A stretch of DNA of 64,000 bases. It comes from an uncultured virus (IMG/VR IMGVR_UViG_3300029787_000017). Its lineage: Duplodnaviria; Heunggongvirae; Uroviricota; Caudoviricetes. Positions 5,245-62,472 of this stretch are shown in pieces. The stretch lies in IMG/VR virus record IMGVR_UViG_3300029787_000017, positions 1 through 64,000 of that record. The stretch is one strand, 5' to 3'. Both the position numbers and the translations under genes were made by a program. The number at the start of each line of letters is the position of its first letter. Position 1 is the first letter of the stretch. Below the pieces are notes generated by a model. That model was not told the origin of the DNA, did not search any database, and saw only the letters and a list, made by a program, of their open reading frames with translations.

Positions 5245-6262
5245 GAATTGTTTGAAGCCCATTTAACAGGACTTCTTTTGATATTTTAGTTGAGGTTGCG
5301 TTTATGTAATCCTCAATCAGTGCATCGCTAACGTGAGTAATAGGACTATCGGGATCTAAGCTGCTCTGCGGAAGCTTCTCGTCTGTCACAGGTTTATACT
5401 TTACCTCAACGTAACCAACATCAAGTTTATCCATGAGCGAAGCAACACTATCCTGCTCCGCATCTACTGTATTGATTATAATTCTAAGAAGTGTAAAGTA
5501 TTTACCATCATTAATCCAATCTAGATTCTCTTCTAGAGATTCATAATCAACTACTAAATGTCTAGGACCAAACTCAATGGGCATGTACACCGCACCTCCA
5601 CTGCGGATAACTGCATAGAAGTTTTCTTTTAGATGCTCAGTAAAGTTTGTGGTGTATGGAGTACCTAATAGCGTGATATTTTTGCTAACATTGTGTCCGT
5701 GAATATGCCCAAGATAAGTAGTGTGCTTAAAATCAGAAGGAAGGAGAGAAAAATCGTTATCCCCAGCAGAATTAAGGGAACCGCAGTAACCAAAGTGACC
5801 GAATACAGTATAATCTCTAGGAACATTAGCCAACTTTGCTTTAATCTTTTCTTCATCTTCATAGTGAGGTATAAAAGCCATCTTAGTACGATGGTCAAAG
5901 AATGTTTGAGTAACAACACGAACTGCGTTGTGTCTGTTCTTTGCGTAAGGAAGGAGATCTTGACAGGGGTTCTTTTCAAACAAACTGAGTGCGGTCACAC
6001 CGTCATCAGACTTATTCTCGCTGTCGTGATTCCCCCTTATTATAGTAACCATTGCTCTAGAGGAAGCGTAATCAATCACTTCTTTAAGTGCGAGCAAGAC
6101 GCTAGGGTATGGCTTCCTATGCATCATTAGATCTCCCAAGAAGATTATGTGATCCGCTTTCGGATTGAGGTCAATGATATCTTTTATGCACTTCTTCTGT
6201 GCATCCAGCAAGCCATAAGGCTTATTGTCGAAGTGCAAGTCTCCGATTACTAATACTTCCAT
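5216..6262 (-). CDS. Mre11/SbcD-like nuclease (T4 gp47-like)
   Basis: Metallophosphoesterase motifs GDLH, LGD, GNHD, GHIH; adjacent to gp46-like gene. Confidence 0.95.
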   Translation of the reverse strand: MEVLVIGDLHFDNKPYGLLDAQKKCIKDIIDLNPKADHIIFLGDLMMHRKPYPSVLLALKEVIDYASSRAMVTIIRGNHDSENKSDDGVTALSLFEKNPCQDLLPYAKNRHNAVRVVTQTFFDHRTKMAFIPHYEDEEKIKAKLANVPRDYTVFGHFGYCGSLNSAGDNDFSLLPSDFKHTTYLGHIHGHNVSKNITLLGTPYTTNFTEHLKENFYAVIRSGGAVYMPIEFGPRHLVVDYESLEENLDWINDGKYFTLLRIIINTVDAEQDSVASLMDKLDVGYVEVKYKPVTDEKLPQSSLDPDSPITHVSDALIEDYINATSTKISKEVLLNGLQTIHENKQSRDK

Positions 6263-6263
6263 A

Positions 6264-6512
6264 TTACCACTTTTCTATGGGACATTCTTCTGTAAACCAC
6301 TTAGTTTTAAGAGGTGTATAGCACCCACACAGCTTACATTGGTCGGCCTCAAAGTGAGGACACCTGTTACATATATCGAGACGGGCTTTAGCTAGGTCGG
6401 ACACCCTAAATCCTGACCTGGCCCAGTGGTATAGTGATTTGAAGAACTGCTTCACTTGGCTTGGTCTTAAATACCTTAAGACGTAGTACAAATTAATTAT
6501 TTTTTGTTTCAT
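6264..6512 (-). CDS. Small Cys-rich putative zinc-binding protein
   Basis: RLDICNRC...CKLCGC...CPIEKW pattern, common in phage small proteins. Confidence 0.7.
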   Translation of the reverse strand: MKQKIINLYYVLRYLRPSQVKQFFKSLYHWARSGFRVSDLAKARLDICNRCPHFEADQCKLCGCYTPLKTKWFTEECPIEKW

Positions 6513-7621
6513 TGGAAGTACTTATTTATTTCAGTAATGTTATCTACCTTTCCATCCTTAAATCTAACAGGAATTGCATCTCCGAAAGACTTACCTACCT
6601 CAGCGTCAATAACCAAAGGCACATCAAAGTGTATATTAAAAAGAGATTTAATGGATGGGTAGTTTACCATCTCATTATAGACAATCTCTAGTGCCTCAGA
6701 TACACAATCTAAATCACAAACTATCTCCACACTATCGTGAACGGTAGCGACGGGACGAGCTTGAATACTATTATCCTTAAAAGACTTAGCAATACCAAGA
6801 AGAGAAGAGAGCAGGATATCAGACGCAGTGCTTTGGATAGTAAAGTTGAGGCCCTGTCTGAGAGCGCGATTAACCACTGTTCTATCACGAGAGGTAACAT
6901 CAGGCAGATTCCTGCGCCTACCAAATATTGTATAAGCATAACCATTGCGTTTAATATATTCATTTACGAACTCCATGTACTCAAAAATGCCAGGGTACAC
7001 TTTCTTGTAGTTATCAATAATCTTCTCAGCCCTCTTCATGGGGATAGCCATGGTCTCTGCTAGATTAAAAGCCCCTCCACCATACACGATCAGGAACGAA
7101 ACTGTTTTGGCAATCTGTCTCTCTTCCTTTGTGATGTCTTTCTTATTAAAGAGAAGCTCTGCCGTGTAAGTATGTAGATCCGCTCCTTGATTGAAGGCTA
7201 GTTGCATATTGCCTTCCTTGGCTATATGAGACAGCACTCTAAGCTCCATGGCTGCGTAATCAACAGTAATGAAGGCTTGACCCTTCTCCGCTGTAAAGAT
7301 GCTCCTGATGTTAGTTTCTGTGTCTCTGGGTAGAGTGTGGAAAGACACTCCCATAGCTTTCTTTGCATTGTAAGCCGCGCAAGACAATCGACCCGTTGTA
7401 GTGCCATCAAACCTGAAGTCTACATACACCTTGTCTCTTTCATTATATGCAATCGCTTTCTTAGTCCCTTGGATATAAGTCTTCGCTAACTTCTCAGATT
7501 TACGAAGATCTAATAGACCTTTTAAGAACTTTTTAGATTCTTGAAGCTGTTCCGTAGTCTTAGAGGAGATAACAGACTTGCTAACCTTCTTCCCCTCATC
7601 CCTGTGCTGCCACTTACTCAC
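6509..7621 (-). CDS. polA: Family A DNA polymerase, part 3 (palm/fingers)
   Basis: TTTGRLS, motif A DYAAMELR, motif B RQIAKTVSFLIVYG, GRRR, NFTIQSTASD, motif C VHDS; GTG start with GAAGGGGAG SD. Confidence 0.95.
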   Translation of the reverse strand: MSKWQHRDEGKKVSKSVISSKTTEQLQESKKFLKGLLDLRKSEKLAKTYIQGTKKAIAYNERDKVYVDFRFDGTTTGRLSCAAYNAKKAMGVSFHTLPRDTETNIRSIFTAEKGQAFITVDYAAMELRVLSHIAKEGNMQLAFNQGADLHTYTAELLFNKKDITKEERQIAKTVSFLIVYGGGAFNLAETMAIPMKRAEKIIDNYKKVYPGIFEYMEFVNEYIKRNGYAYTIFGRRRNLPDVTSRDRTVVNRALRQGLNFTIQSTASDILLSSLLGIAKSFKDNSIQARPVATVHDSVEIVCDLDCVSEALEIVYNEMVNYPSIKSLFNIHFDVPLVIDAEVGKSFGDAIPVRFKDGKVDNITEINKYFQ

Positions 7622-8093
7622 GCTTCTTCAACTCCCCTTCAATATGCTCAAGCAATAGCTTAAGTGTAGGTGCAGATACTGAAGGCTTTCCGCTTGCTGT
7701 CTTATCGGGAGGATACAACTCCATCCCCCCCTCACGAGTGTACAATATCTCGATCAAGTGGTTGTTAGATGAGAGGTTATCTGTCTTGTGTACAGAATTG
7801 CAACTATAGAGACCGTCCTCCTCGTCCATGTTCTTAGAACTTAACGTCTTGCCTACCTTCTCTAGAGTGTTAGTGTCTACATTTAAGCCCTCGTACTCCA
7901 TCTCTGCGAACACCTCAAGTGAGGGCATGATAACCTTTTCAATCAACCTCATCATCGGACTCCCTTCAAGTTTTTCGCAAATCAAATCAAACAACTTGAG
8001 GGTGAAATAAGTATCCATAGCATTCCCTTCCACGCAATCGGAAAGAGATATACTGGACCAATCAAAAGTGTTAGGATTGTTTATAGTAAGCAT
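7614..8093 (-). CDS. polA: Family A DNA polymerase, part 2 (Exo III helix + most of thumb)
   Basis: GNAMDTYFTLKLF (Exo III-like), MPSLEVFAEMEYEGLNVD, NLSSNNHLIEILY, KTASGKPSVSAPTL. Confidence 0.9.
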   Translation of the reverse strand: MLTINNPNTFDWSSISLSDCVEGNAMDTYFTLKLFDLICEKLEGSPMMRLIEKVIMPSLEVFAEMEYEGLNVDTNTLEKVGKTLSSKNMDEEDGLYSCNSVHKTDNLSSNNHLIEILYTREGGMELYPPDKTASGKPSVSAPTLKLLLEHIEGELKKRE

Positions 8094-8116
8094 TACTATA
8101 TATTATAGAGGTCATC

Positions 8117-8617
8117 ATGCGAAATTTAATAATCATACTTATGTTAGTTACTCTGTCTAGTTGCAGCACCATCAAACACGCTGTAGGAGGAGCCTTAGGT
8201 GGAGGCTTAACAGCAGCCTTCCTCCCTGAGCCAGCAGCGGTCGCAGCAGGAGCAGCAGGTGGAGTCATGGTCACAGAGCTTATCCTGCCTTCAGCAAGCC
8301 CAGCAGCCCTTGTAGGGCAAGTGGCAGGAGCAGGTCCAGTACAAGGAACTACTGCTTCTACCTTACATGAAACAGGTGGGCTAATTAAGACTTTAGGTTA
8401 TTGGTGGTTAATCCTCTTTGTGTTCCTTCCACTCTTCAGAAAGAATGGACGTAACTGGTTTAAAAAGTTCGGACAGATTCATAACACCGTATCCCAAGCA
8501 GACATTGATGCAAGGGATGATGAACAGGATGTAATTATGAAGCATAATGAGAGTAGGATTGCTGCTTTAGAGCAAATGATTACAGACTCTCAAGCTCTGT
8601 CGGAAAATAAAGCTTAA
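8117..8617 (+). CDS. Lipoprotein with glycine-zipper region and downstream TM helix (candidate unimolecular spanin)
   Basis: Lipobox LSSC after a hydrophobic signal; GGALGGG/AAGAAGG; TM LGYWWLILFVFLPLF followed by RKNGR; GAGG SD. Confidence 0.55.
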   Translation: MRNLIIILMLVTLSSCSTIKHAVGGALGGGLTAAFLPEPAAVAAGAAGGVMVTELILPSASPAALVGQVAGAGPVQGTTASTLHETGGLIKTLGYWWLILFVFLPLFRKNGRNWFKKFGQIHNTVSQADIDARDDEQDVIMKHNESRIAALEQMITDSQALSENKA

Positions 8618-9602
8618 CCAAATCCATCAAACTCTTAGGGCTGTTCTCATCTAGAAGGTGATGCATAATCTTAGTATCCCACACATTCTTAGTGTAGATA
8701 CCATGATTAATTAAGAACTTCAGATCGAACTTAGCGTTATGGAATACTTTCTTGTTAAGTGGATTCTCTAAAACTCTACGAAGATTAGCCCACATACTTG
8801 CGTACTCAGGCTCACCCTTCCTAAAGGGAGAATCTTTGTGGTCACAGGGTATGACCCAATTGGTGTCCTTAGATGATAAGGCTATCGTTTGAATCTTATC
8901 TTGCAGAAAATTAAGCCCCGTAGTTTCAATGTCTACTGCTAGAGTCTCCTCGCTGTCCCTCAACTTCTCTGCAAGATCTTTTACTTCCTCTATTGTTGTA
9001 AGGAGTTCGTATTCCAGCTTGCCTTCGTGGGTCTTCTCTAACACATACTTCTCATACGCATTTCTAATGTCAGTCTGGAATAAGAACTTGTGTCGAGGTT
9101 CCTTGGCTACGAAGAACGGGTGAAAAATAGGGACTACTACACAGCTATGCCCATTATCGGTGGTGTATGTGAAGGACTTCCCTCTTTTATCACTAATACC
9201 ACTCTTCTTAATTAACATCTTCATTGCCAGGTTTCCACAAGGTAAAATAAGCTTCGGCTTTATCTTATCCACTGTAGCCTGTAAATGCACCCTGCATAAA
9301 TTCATGTTGTCAGGAGACATGTCTGCCTCTTTGACGGAGGGACACTTAACTGAAGCTGCACACGCGAAGGACTCCTTATACGCTTCTCTAATAACTGCGT
9401 ACTCTGGCTTGGTGAATGGGAAAGTCTTCCCGTATGAGGACTTGAGTGAGTCTGACAAGAATAGAACATCAGACTGTCCAAGCTTCTCATAATCCATAAC
9501 AGAATAGCAAGGCTTATTCTTCTCTAGAATGGTACAGCCATCACACAGAGGATTCTCTGCGGTTATTTTATGGTCAGAGTAGATACTACCTAAATCAAAC
9601 AT
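8580..9602 (-). CDS. polA: Family A DNA polymerase, part 1 (family-4 UDG-like Fe-S domain + 3'-5' exonuclease Exo I/II)
   Basis: CDGC...VKC...C, IKPKLILPCG, PIFHP (UDG fold); VDIETTG, FHNAKFD, WDT (DnaQ-like exonuclease). Confidence 0.9.
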   Translation of the reverse strand: MFDLGSIYSDHKITAENPLCDGCTILEKNKPCYSVMDYEKLGQSDVLFLSDSLKSSYGKTFPFTKPEYAVIREAYKESFACAASVKCPSVKEADMSPDNMNLCRVHLQATVDKIKPKLILPCGNLAMKMLIKKSGISDKRGKSFTYTTDNGHSCVVVPIFHPFFVAKEPRHKFLFQTDIRNAYEKYVLEKTHEGKLEYELLTTIEEVKDLAEKLRDSEETLAVDIETTGLNFLQDKIQTIALSSKDTNWVIPCDHKDSPFRKGEPEYASMWANLRRVLENPLNKKVFHNAKFDLKFLINHGIYTKNVWDTKIMHHLLDENSPKSLMDLVKLYFPTELESL

Positions 9603-9611
9603 CTATAATAG
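9603..9611. promoter_or_regulatory. Palindromic CTATWATAG putative bidirectional -10 element; copies at 8100-8108, 10717-10725, 13775-13783, 57834-57842, 62459-62467
   Basis: Same TATWATA core in five short divergent gaps and before the 835-aa gene. Confidence 0.65.
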
Positions 9612-9615
9612 TTAT

Positions 9616-9960
9616 ATGAAGAAGAAAAATTATATTGACAACAAAGAGTTCGAAGCACTCATCTTAGCTTATAAGGACAACCCTGAAGAGAATGAGGAAG
9701 AGTTAGTGAAGATGTTCGACCTTTTGATTACAAATATAATCGGATCATTCAACTTCAAAATAGATCCTGATGATGCTAAACAAGATTGCTTTGCGCTCAT
9801 ACTAAAGATCATAAAAAACTTCGCTCCTAGGAAAGGCACAGCCTTTAATTACTTCACTACAATCATAGTGAACAACCTCAAGTTGTTATACACTAAAGAG
9901 AAGAAGTACAAGCTAAAGATTGAAAATTTTATAGAAATACAATCTAAGAAGCTTGAGTAA
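9616..9960 (+). CDS. Late-transcription sigma factor (T4 gp55-like, region 2 only)
   Basis: NYIDNKEF, DAKQDC, KNF.P.KG.AFNYFTTIIVN pattern typical of gp55-like sigmas. Confidence 0.8.
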   Translation: MKKKNYIDNKEFEALILAYKDNPEENEEELVKMFDLLITNIIGSFNFKIDPDDAKQDCFALILKIIKNFAPRKGTAFNYFTTIIVNNLKLLYTKEKKYKLKIENFIEIQSKKLE

Positions 9961-10276
9961 CCTTAAGGCATTTGTAAACATTAGGAAGATAATCCTCAGA
10001 TATAACTTGATCTCTTCGTAGCTGGATCAAGTGTGGGGTTTTGTTAGTACCGTAAATGACAAAGCTGTGAGGCATCTTCAAGCTGTCTACTATGTACAAC
10101 GGTTCAGTCCTATCACGAGGTGATGCGTAAACTTCCTTTAGGTCTTTAACTAGCTTATCACACCACTTGTCCCAAAGAGATACAAAAAGGATGCTGCATC
10201 TACGAGGCTCTCTCTTAAATTTCTTGAGAACTTTATTAAGATCGTTCTCTTTCTTTAAGAATACTAAGTTATACAT
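9944..10276 (-). CDS. Thioredoxin-fold protein with a degenerate active site; start re-assigned to MYNLVFL
   Basis: ILFVSLWDKWC (cf. F.A.WCGPC), LYIVDS, YGTNKTPHL (cis-Pro motif). Confidence 0.5.
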   Translation of the reverse strand: MYNLVFLKKENDLNKVLKKFKREPRRCSILFVSLWDKWCDKLVKDLKEVYASPRDRTEPLYIVDSLKMPHSFVIYGTNKTPHLIQLRRDQVISEDYLPNVYKCLKVTQAS

Positions 10277-10277
10277 A

Positions 10278-10709
10278 CTAGTTTTCTTCTTCCGAGTCCA
10301 TAATTCTCTGAATCTCATCATCGTGAAGCACACCTTCTTTAATTGAAGGGCCTCCTGATAGGTCAGCCTCATAACTGGCTGTCTCAGCGAGCTTCACGTT
10401 CCCATCTTCTCCTTCAAGCACAGTAATGCCTGAAGCAGCAAGCTCATCCTTGTTCTCTTCAGCATACTTTCTAACAAGATCGGCAAGCTGCTGGTTCATA
10501 GCTTCTATGCCTGTTAAAAAGATCGTCTTCATGAAGTCGCCTTGCGCTACGTCTTCGGGCTTGCAGATGTCAGAAAAGTTCTTAAAGGCTACTGCCTCGT
10601 CCTTATTTAAATTGATATGTAGTTTCATTCTATTGTTACTCCTGTCACGGACTCTAATTTTCCATGTTTCTAAGTTAAATTTGATACCTTCAGCGGTCTT
10701 GGGTTTCAT
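10278..10709 (-). CDS. Hypothetical protein
   Basis: 143-aa ORF in operon context; no family recognised. Confidence 0.75.
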   Translation of the reverse strand: MKPKTAEGIKFNLETWKIRVRDRSNNRMKLHINLNKDEAVAFKNFSDICKPEDVAQGDFMKTIFLTGIEAMNQQLADLVRKYAEENKDELAASGITVLEGEDGNVKLAETASYEADLSGGPSIKEGVLHDDEIQRIMDSEEEN

Positions 10710-10740
10710 GGTACACCTATTATAGTATAGAGGTTAAATT

Positions 10741-57825: not shown

Positions 57826-57861
57826 ACCTTTATATATTATATATTTAGATAAGGCATTAAC

Positions 57862-60542: not shown

Positions 60543-61548
60543 TTATTTTAATTCAAAAAAGAACGGACCTTGTACATAGTTCTGATCAAGGATGGTGTAA
60601 GCGCAGGTAAGAGCGTAAGTTCCTGTAACACCTCCTAAGGTAGCTGCATTTGCCGCAGTAGAAATAACCTGAGTGTTGAGAGCATACAGCATGGTGTTAT
60701 CGGAAGTAATAGTAATCAAGCCTGATGTGTCAGAGTAGTCTAGAATCGTAACCCTAGAAGGGAGGTTTACGGTTCCTTCATTAATTTTCTGAAGCTTAAA
60801 CTGTGCGTTCCTAATAGCAGACTGTTCAAGTATTGCTTTAGTGGCAGGTTCTAGGCTCCTANNNNNNNNNNTCTGTGGTGACCTTTAAATCAGTTTGAGA
60901 TCCAAGATTTACATGTTTGTTTACAAGACGATTAGTAGATGTAAAGATAACAGGCTCTGTGATTGTTTGGAATACATCGTTGTAAAGTGAGAACCCATTT
61001 ATCATATCCTGATAATTAGAATTTTGAGCAAACTTTACAGTCCATACATCAATATATGCCTGTACAGCAGAAGCTCCGTTTTGAACCTCAACAGAACTGC
61101 TATTTAAATAATAAGCACCTGAAAGGTCTACAGTCCCATCAAGCACACATAAATAATCACCAATACCAAGTCTTAAAACTCCACTTGCCTCAGGTGAGGG
61201 AACGTATGCAGGGAACCAAGTTGTATCGCTTAAGTAATTCGAAGTTACGCGAGGAGCCCCCGTGCCTTCTGTGGCCCCATCGTGAGGTATACCTGCCTCA
61301 GGATTACCAGAGACTCCGTAAGACATCTTAATCTTACTAGCCTCAATATCAGACTTTAGAAGCCCAGTAGTGCCGTCAATCAAACTTGCAGGAGTTAGAT
61401 TATCTTCTTTAGAGAAAATAGTTACCGCACTAACGTCATAAGGGTCAACATACTCACCTCCATTTAAAAAGAAAGTTCGCAGAGCCACCTTCTGCGTAAC
61501 ACTTGGTCTGTTGTACCTCTCAGCTAAATCATTACCGTTTAATTGCAT
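60543..61548 (-). CDS. Hypothetical probable virion protein spanning the assembly gap
   Basis: Track ORF runs into the N gap; beyond it an open frame SLEPATKAILEQ...GPFFFELK* ends at 60543 with no start of its own. Confidence 0.65.
60862..60871. other. Assembly gap (10 N)
   Basis: nnnnnnnnnn in the sequence. Confidence 1.
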
Positions 61549-62442: not shown

Positions 62443-62472
62443 AGTTATTTCTCCTATACTATAATAGTGTAG

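Follow-up and report, generated by a model that had tools for sequence, protein, structure and literature searches.

A family A DNA polymerase encoded by three separate genes, each break falling within a domain, in an uncultured marine T4-like phage

The DNA analysed here (hereafter the window) comprises 64,000 nucleotides (nt), the first 64 kb of the 77-kb IMG/VR viral record IMGVR_UViG_3300029787_000017, which is approximately 69% complete and derives from an uncultured marine T4-like phage. Between positions 6509 and 9602 the window carries three collinear minus-strand open reading frames (ORFs), here called p1, p2 and p3, which correspond in order to successive parts of one family A DNA polymerase (PolA) of the type bearing a uracil-DNA glycosylase (UDG)-like domain. 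Separating p1 from p2 is a fourth ORF, mid, which runs on the opposite strand. The four are as follows:

8580..9602, minus strand: p1, 340 amino acids (aa), ATG start; a family-4-UDG-like domain and the N-terminal two thirds of a DnaQ-type 3'-5' exonuclease domain
8117..8617, plus strand: mid, a 166-aa ORF between p1 and p2
7614..8093, minus strand: p2, 159 aa, ATG start; the C-terminal exonuclease helices (with Exo III), an interdomain segment and the beginning of the thumb
6509..7621, minus strand: p3, 370 aa, GTG start; a Lys-rich tail, the remaining thumb, the palm and the fingers

That the three minus-strand ORFs together make up one PolA had been proposed in an earlier reading of the sequence (the original prediction), and their coordinates, their placement on the family phrog_17 and their alignment to the Klenow fragment all agree with it. 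Pfam matches were obtained for p1 with PF03167 (UDG; E 9.4e-6, 26.2 bits, cut-off 24.3) and with PF01612 (exonuclease; E 4.4e-22), the latter over profile positions 1-131 of 173 only, and for p3 with PF00476 (E 3.8e-77, profile positions 53-380 of 381). Positions 1-52 of PF00476 fall on p2, which by itself gave no Pfam match, even at E<=5. Coverage of phrog_17 (PHROG) was collinear, with p1 at 543-785, p2 at 797-929 and p3 at 927-1243; on the Klenow chain (1d9d), profiles built from relatives placed p1 at 7-136, p2 at 161-292 (E 6.8e-6) and p3 at 301-596. This contiguous coverage indicates that no segment is missing and none is duplicated, so that, as judged by these alignments, the three products together span one UDG-type PolA. 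They total 869 aa, versus 809-812 aa for the intact metagenomic relatives P0120 and P0141, which have the UDG-exonuclease-polymerase architecture. The exonuclease domain is interrupted by the first break (cut 1), between Exo II and Exo III, and the thumb by the second (cut 2), which falls between positions 292 and 301 of the Klenow chain. The N-terminus of p3 is a conserved Lys-rich tail and its thumb portion begins at Klenow chain position 301; the tail of p2 and approximately the first 32 residues of p3 make up an insertion relative to Klenow at cut 2.

In tblastn searches the nearest cultured matches were Herelleviridae-type PolAs, which are UDG-PolAs and not T7-like, at around 30% identity, and p2 matched the interior of intact mycobacteriophage PolA genes at around 31% identity. 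The profile match of p1 in the PDB was the UDG 4zbx (E 8.8e-13). A Foldseek search with the predicted model of p1, which is suggestive only (mean predicted local distance difference test score, pLDDT, of 70, with low confidence in the C-terminal 30 residues), returned the phiLo family A polymerase 9qhs at the top, followed by the family 4 UDGs 4zby, 4zbx, 1ui0 and 1l9g. An AlphaFold2 model of p2 alone, a fragment of two domains for which 26 sequences were available, was uninformative (mean pLDDT 41.5) and was not used as evidence.

The domain core and catalytic motifs were located as follows:

9087..9377, minus strand: core of the UDG-like domain, p1 residues 76-172
8925..8933, minus strand: Exo I, D224-I-E226 of p1, invariant in 23 sequences and aligned to the Klenow exonuclease domain
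8724..8738, minus strand: Exo II, N289-A-K-F-D293 of p1, from the alignment of 23 sequences
8013..8027, minus strand: Exo III region, G23-N24-A25-M26-D27 of p2, with D27 aligned to the Klenow Exo III Asp
7244..7261, minus strand: motif A, D121 YAAM E126 of p3, aligned to 'DYSQIELR' of Bst Pol I
7079..7120, minus strand: motif B, R168 QIA K172 TVS F176 LIV Y180 G181 of p3, from alignments including Bst and Klenow
6731..6742, minus strand: motif C, V294 H295 D296 S297 of p3, from alignments including Bst and Klenow

The original prediction had assigned a UDG-like domain, Exo I (DIE) and Exo II (NAKFD) to p1, an Exo III-like GNAMD lacking the usual Tyr to p2, and motifs A, B and C to p3, and each of these assignments held up in the Pfam matches and alignments. 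Within Exo II, H288, A290, K291, F292 and D293 are invariant in the 23 sequences and N289 nearly so. The D of Klenow 'YAAED' has its aligned counterpart in D27 of p2, which does not vary in 26 sequences; the same holds for C20, E22, G23, N24 and A25. Profile alignment to Klenow thus assigns the Exo III aspartate to another chain than the one carrying the carboxylates of Exo I and Exo II, as had been predicted. The polymerase motifs are invariant in 25 p3 sequences (D121/E126 of motif A, R168/K172/F176/Y180/G181 of motif B, H295/D296 of motif C), the full set of invariant residues in motif A being D121, Y122, A124, M125 and E126. As to the UDG-like domain, its HP(F/Y) motif is kept as H161 P162. 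Four Cys that do not vary (C20, C23, C87 and C103) lie within and ahead of its core and may be 4Fe-4S ligands, as in family 4 UDGs. The region that we presume to be the site of the UDG motif GE(A/G)PG reads LF(L/V)(S/A)DS instead. This domain may serve in processivity or in base sensing, roles that have been discussed for UDG-PolAs.

The same breakpoints were sought in related phage genomes. Among 62 IMG/VR viral contigs with p3 relatives at 65-86% identity, p1, p2 and p3 were separate tblastn hits in different frames at every locus, wherever the contig reaches. All three ORFs are complete at 35 loci, which yield 32 distinct sequences, and their lengths vary little (p1 336-345, p2 157-165, p3 354-373 aa).

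We consider it likely that these genes encode a replicative family A polymerase made of three separately translated polypeptides that reassemble into the usual UDG-exonuclease-polymerase architecture. In such an enzyme p1 would supply the UDG-like domain together with that portion of the proofreading domain in which the carboxylates of Exo I and Exo II reside. From p2 would come the final helices of the exonuclease, bearing the Exo III Asp, as well as the connecting segment and the thumb's first half, while p3 would contribute the remaining thumb, the palm, the fingers and motifs A, B and C. Since p2 holds both the end of the exonuclease domain and the first half of the thumb, it would act as a strap between p1 and p3, its N-terminus completing the exonuclease fold and active site of p1 and its C-terminus completing the thumb of p3. 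Synthesis of the chains would be coupled, the p2 stop overlapping the p3 start behind a Shine-Dalgarno (SD) sequence and, in the presumed ancestral arrangement, the p1 stop overlapping the p2 start (TAATG). Such a TAATG, with a 1-nt overlap, joins p1 and p2 in 20 of 43 relatives, while an insert is present in the other 23. In those 20, TAATG and GTGNNTAR link all three ORFs, which points to coupled, near-equimolar synthesis by translational coupling and does not favour the separately regulated subunits envisaged in the original prediction; p1 is physically uncoupled only where a cargo gene sits between it and p2, as in the window.

Several points weigh against this proposal. The physical assembly of a heterotrimer is predicted from the gene sequences, and the 3'-5' exonuclease activity of the split enzyme is likewise a prediction. 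The Tyr position of Exo III (Yx3D) is occupied in p2 by G23, invariant in the 26 sequences, so that proofreading may be weakened, or may work differently; the corresponding sequence is YNAWD in the intact relative P0120, and some two-part relatives place the Y one residue earlier (YGNALD). Equimolar coupling cannot hold for p1 in the window, where the antisense gene separates it from p2. Finally, the 77-kb record contains a single PolA polymerase domain, a single PF01612 exonuclease and no PolB, but its incompleteness means that a second polymerase may be encoded in the rest of the genome.

Two of these points could also be read as signs that the pieces work apart, p3, with or without p2, being an exonuclease-less polymerase and p1 a free UDG-like DNA-binding or processivity factor with a dead exonuclease, so that no composite proofreading site is formed. 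The missing Exo III Tyr with its invariant Gly, the opposite-strand gene that uncouples p1 from p2 in the window, and the proposal that the UDG domain of UDG-PolAs is a processivity module (PMC3201878; PMC10201439) are in line with this. We nevertheless regard it as improbable, given that all four carboxylates are invariant across the family, D27 on p2 included, that p1 and p2 are joined by the TAATG overlap in the 20 relatives mentioned above, that the end of p1 and the start of p2 lie at adjoining Klenow positions within one domain, and that the stability of PolAs is said to depend on the exonuclease domain (PMC10201439).

The manner in which p2 and p3 meet bears on whether they are translated separately. 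The signals at this junction, read at 7614..7639, are those described in the original prediction, i.e. a GTG start with an SD sequence and a TGA three codons upstream:

7614..7639, minus strand: p2/p3 junction, AAGGGGAG, with an SD-like sequence at 7632-7639, TGA at 7628-7630, the p3 GTG at 7619-7621 and the p2 TAA at 7614-7616

The p3 GTG (7621-7619) overlaps with the p2 TAA (7616-7614) and is preceded, 10 nt upstream, by GGGGAG; the TGA (7630-7628) is in frame with p3. In the relatives, a GAGGAG-type SD stands at the same fixed spacing of 10 nt. Of 50 loci, 42 have the stop and start arranged as GTGNNTAR, which puts p3 in the +1 frame, and the other 8 have them arranged as ATGA, which puts it in the -1 frame. 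Two relatives (L055 and L062) have lost the usual p2 stop, so that p2 is 165 aa long and overlaps p3 by 26 nt; the p3 GTG is kept in both. Frameshifted phage genes are known, and the 8-nt overlap of the p2 and p3 ORFs in the +1 frame would allow a programmed frameshift or read-through to join p2 to p3 (and p1 to p2 in the abutting relatives), the product being, or including, a single chain. We judge this very unlikely. There are two frame offsets among the relatives, each with its own conserved start codon, and for this reason the overlap fits termination-reinitiation and does not fit a conserved slippery site. The stretch open to frameshifting is 4-11 nt long in 34 of the 50 loci, no slippery heptamer was seen by eye in the window, and the SD spacing is fixed. 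A similar argument led to frameshifting being dismissed for the split PolA of S-SBP1-like cyanophages (PMC10201439).

A sequencing or assembly error, or a polymerase gene in the course of being lost, has a minimal probability and is refuted as far as comparative data allow. Indels are possible in a single metagenomic contig, and one relative, L010, does have a broken p2, frameshifted into two tblastn pieces in different frames (5590-6008), the only such case among the relatives (the same locus also bears a 1565-nt p1-p2 insert, among the larger ones). Against this stand the 32 distinct p1 to p3 sequences with the same structure and the selection acting on them: median pairwise dN/dS (ratio of nonsynonymous to synonymous substitution rates) was 0.10 for p1, 0.09 for p2 and 0.05 for p3, with a maximum of 0.29 over all pieces, as estimated from the 57 (p1), 130 (p2) and 47 (p3) pairs with dS of 0.05-2.5, most pairs being saturated. 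Each of the three pieces is therefore, on these estimates, under purifying selection, and the relaxed selection that decay would bring was not seen. Public sequencing points the same way. At least part of the stretch is present in 20 runs from ten studies, and the contigs of four runs, from four studies, that were placed on 6400-9700 contained no insertion or deletion; they cross the p2/p3 junction in all four runs and, in X6 and X8, also the p2 start. Contig cover is fragmented, with loose ends at around 8570-8750 and a 76-nt skip in a single X3 contig, to which no weight was given, and word depth rises around 30-fold at 8400-8730, where assemblies break. The breaks and the rise in depth at the gap between p1 and p2 fit mixtures of related phages that differ there. 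The window also contains an assembly gap, a run of 10 N at 60862-60871, distant from the polymerase genes.

The remaining alternative is one gene broken up by introns or inteins, with RNA or protein splicing yielding an uninterrupted chain again, as is the case for SPO1-like or phage K-type polymerase genes. It can draw on the gene between p1 and p2 in the window and on the distant relatives P0129 and P0130, which carry Intein_splicing with LAGLIDADG or HNH, but its probability is close to nil, since no Rfam intron matched at E<=1 in 6000-10500, the TAATG abutment without intervening DNA leaves no room for an intron at p1/p2, p2 and p3 always overlap, the summed pieces make one polymerase with no intein-sized surplus, and no homing endonuclease match was found among the 9 proteins scanned (p2, mid and 7 insert ORFs of relatives). 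The original prediction had likewise seen no intein termini or group I intron core and almost no window for a frameshift, in keeping with the Rfam search, the abutting or overlapping ORFs and the two frame offsets.

A profile search with p2 allowed the two breaks to be ordered. An earlier homologous-protein search for longer forms of p2 had found none; the later profile search did find such forms, among 504 hits at E<=1e-3 from the 1.84 billion representative proteins that it covered. The best 150 of the 504 were classed. Among these, 84 were stand-alone proteins of 140-200 aa beginning at the p2 N-terminus, 81 of them starting with ML, and since they represent clusters at 50% identity they also count against an artefact or a decaying gene; 37 were fragments of less than 140 aa and 5 were other short proteins. 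Ten longer proteins began at the p2 N-terminus, and in 8 of these, 480-563 aa long, p2 and p3 were fused in full, the PF00476 domain being complete. In the last 14 the region was internal to a longer chain; this group includes intact UDG-exonuclease-polymerase proteins of 809-812 aa and intein-bearing forms. P0129 and P0130 are distant intact UDG-PolAs in which the inteins, with LAGLIDADG or HNH, lie inside the polymerase domain. A two-part form could be followed at locus L064, which shares its gene neighbourhood (resolvase and sigma-like gene) with the window locus and where a p1-like 332-aa ORF is followed by a 92-aa insert and then by a 563-aa p2p3 fusion starting MLTIRNPETFDW. A search for loci related to P0111 found none. 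As distant relatives share cut 1 with p2 and p3 fused, while others are intact, cut 1 precedes cut 2: in this comparison it is the older and more widespread of the two, and cut 2 is later and belongs to the clade that holds the window. The polymerase would thus have been divided in two steps, first into p1 and p2p3, a state persisting in distant relatives, and then into p2 and p3.

After both fissions, the p1-p2 junction would have become a landing site for accessory genes. This gap is an insertion hotspot, occupied by 151-2403 nt of unrelated cargo in 23 of 43 loci. Cargoes include mid, small basic proteins, a 91-aa membrane protein, a 51-aa ORF, a GT2 glycosyltransferase and two large basic ORFs, and most are on the opposite strand and bring a CTMTAWTATATAG element beside the p2 ATG. 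In the window the cargo is the intact opposite-strand gene noted in the original prediction, mid, found at 8117-8617, whose 166-aa product is lipoprotein-like, with a lipobox-like LSSC in its signal, a Gly/Ala-rich stretch, a hydrophobic segment (YWWLILFVFLPLF) and a charged tail. Its 3' end converges on that of p1 with a 38-nt overlap. It is present in 12 of the 62 related loci at 75-88% identity, and in some shared loci it is better conserved than p1 or p2. The mid product matched no Pfam (also at E<=5) or PHROG family and, in the Atlas, only viral hypothetical clusters; a spanin-like or superinfection-exclusion role would be a guess. The gap ORFs of seven other loci (L009, L010, L011, L012, L014, L019 and L035) form a family of small, very basic opposite-strand proteins that share the N-terminal motif Y(E/D)xIGESIW(N/D)TY(K/R) and match no Pfam family.

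It could be imagined that the fissions are adaptive, p2 being an exchangeable strap that lets the core assemble with or without the p1 module, so that fidelity or the handling of modified bases is tuned, and the p1-p2 junction being a promoter-bearing landing pad at which co-occurring phages swap accessory genes. We regard this as a rather doubtful extension of the three-polypeptide enzyme proposed above.

With regard to start signals, the TATWATA elements reported ahead of p1 and p2 in the original prediction were found at both places, and their role as promoters is putative:

9603..9615, no strand assigned: A/T-rich 13-nt spacer separating the p1 ATG from the divergent ATG of a gp55-like sigma gene; it reads ATAACTATTATAG on the minus strand
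8096..8107, minus strand: TATAATATATAG element, promoter-like (putative), between the divergent starts of p2 (8093) and mid (8117)

These TATWATA-type A/T-rich elements lie directly 5' of the p1 and p2 ATGs. An element of the CTMTAWTATATAG type precedes the p2 ATG in most insert-bearing relatives, but is missing from those whose insert, of 91 aa or 51 aa, is on the same strand. For the pattern TATWATATATAG, 4 matches were counted versus 1.18 expected, and 3 of 100 shuffles also reached 4, a weak enrichment; scans for sigma-70 promoters and terminators were at or below shuffle expectation. Head-to-head gene pairs of the replication module are split by only 13-36 nt (9603-9615, 10710-10740, 57826-57861 and 62443-62472), and these spacers carry TATAATA or TATTATAG-type elements located 0-5 nt from the ATG of some flanking genes, hinting that genes of this module may have very short or absent leaders. 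The structural genes differ from these pairs in having A/T-rich sequence together with an AAGGAG-type SD.

The genes around the polymerase are those of a T4-like phage. The window encodes sheath, tube, baseplate wedge, a gp23-type capsid protein and a prohead protease among its T4-like structural genes, and a replication module with ribonucleotide reductase (RNR), SbcCD, primase, helicase, a RusA-like resolvase and a gp55-like late sigma gene. The capsid protein is approximately 27% identical to cyanomyovirus capsid proteins, and a nucleotide search of a phage database gave no match. The gp55-like late sigma factor (9616-9960, plus strand; phrog_234, E 8.6e-5, with a weak Sigma70_r2 match) is divergent from p1 and is kept beside it in relatives, also in L064. 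Downstream of p3, an 82-aa Cys-rich DUF6171 protein (6264-6512, minus strand) starts 4 nt inside the p3 end (overlap 6509-6512), and its stop (6264-6266) is one base upstream of the SbcD-like ATG at 6262; because of this overlap and of the adjoining stop and start, p2, p3, DUF6171, SbcD and SbcC seem to form a single compact unit.

Textbooks present family A polymerases as single-chain enzymes. The split family B polymerases of phages, among them the split gp43 of some T4-related phages, differ from the enzyme in the window in belonging to another polymerase family, in being two-part and in being cut at or near a domain boundary. In phiKZ-like phages, whose polymerase is also of family B, the exonuclease is encoded as a separate ORF, so that proofreading and polymerase are on separate chains, as here (PMC3201878). 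For family A, a two-gene split between exonuclease and polymerase was reported in S-SBP1-like T7-like cyanophages as the first in PolAs (Czernecki et al., 2023, Nucleic Acids Research; PMC10201439), a PolA split in two is described in clade B T7-like cyanophages (PMC12695635), and the DNA polymerase of the OM43 phages MEP401 and MEP402 is also split in two (PMC10580990). The S-SBP1-like case resembles the window in being a gene-level fission of a marine-phage family A polymerase with stop and start codons that overlap or adjoin and with predicted reassembly; in that case there are two genes, whole domains are separated, the exonuclease site is on one chain and the enzyme is of the T7-like subfamily (PMC10201439), whereas the window has three genes, cuts inside the exonuclease domain and the thumb, a UDG-PolA and a T4-like myovirus. 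MEP401 and MEP402, which are podovirus-like and related to Zobellviridae, can be likened to the window for the cargo gene between p1 and p2; theirs is a two-part split, for which the authors left intron splicing open (PMC10580990), while here the abutting relatives exclude splicing. The single-chain UDG-PolAs of SPO1, N4 and other phages have the same domain order, UDG-like domain first, 3'-5' exonuclease next and polymerase last (PMC10201439; PMC3201878), in one polypeptide, sometimes with introns or inteins, and the window enzyme has it in three. The literature search, which left subscription journals and supplements outside its reach, found only two-part PolA splits and no three-gene or intradomain split. 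Within the literature searched, the three-gene, intradomain PolA is thus a variant beyond the published two-gene split.

This work describes a large and diverse environmental family in which PolA is cut twice, each time within a domain, leaving one proofreading carboxylate on a different chain from the remaining three. A note of caution follows for virome surveys in which polA is used as a marker, where a 159-aa piece without a Pfam hit and pieces of 340 and 370 aa that resemble truncated genes may be met. If the pieces reassemble, the family would offer a naturally occurring PolA complemented from three fragments, would allow a test of the extent to which a DEDD site and a thumb depend on an unbroken chain, and would record gene fission step by step, from the intact through the two-part to the three-part enzyme.

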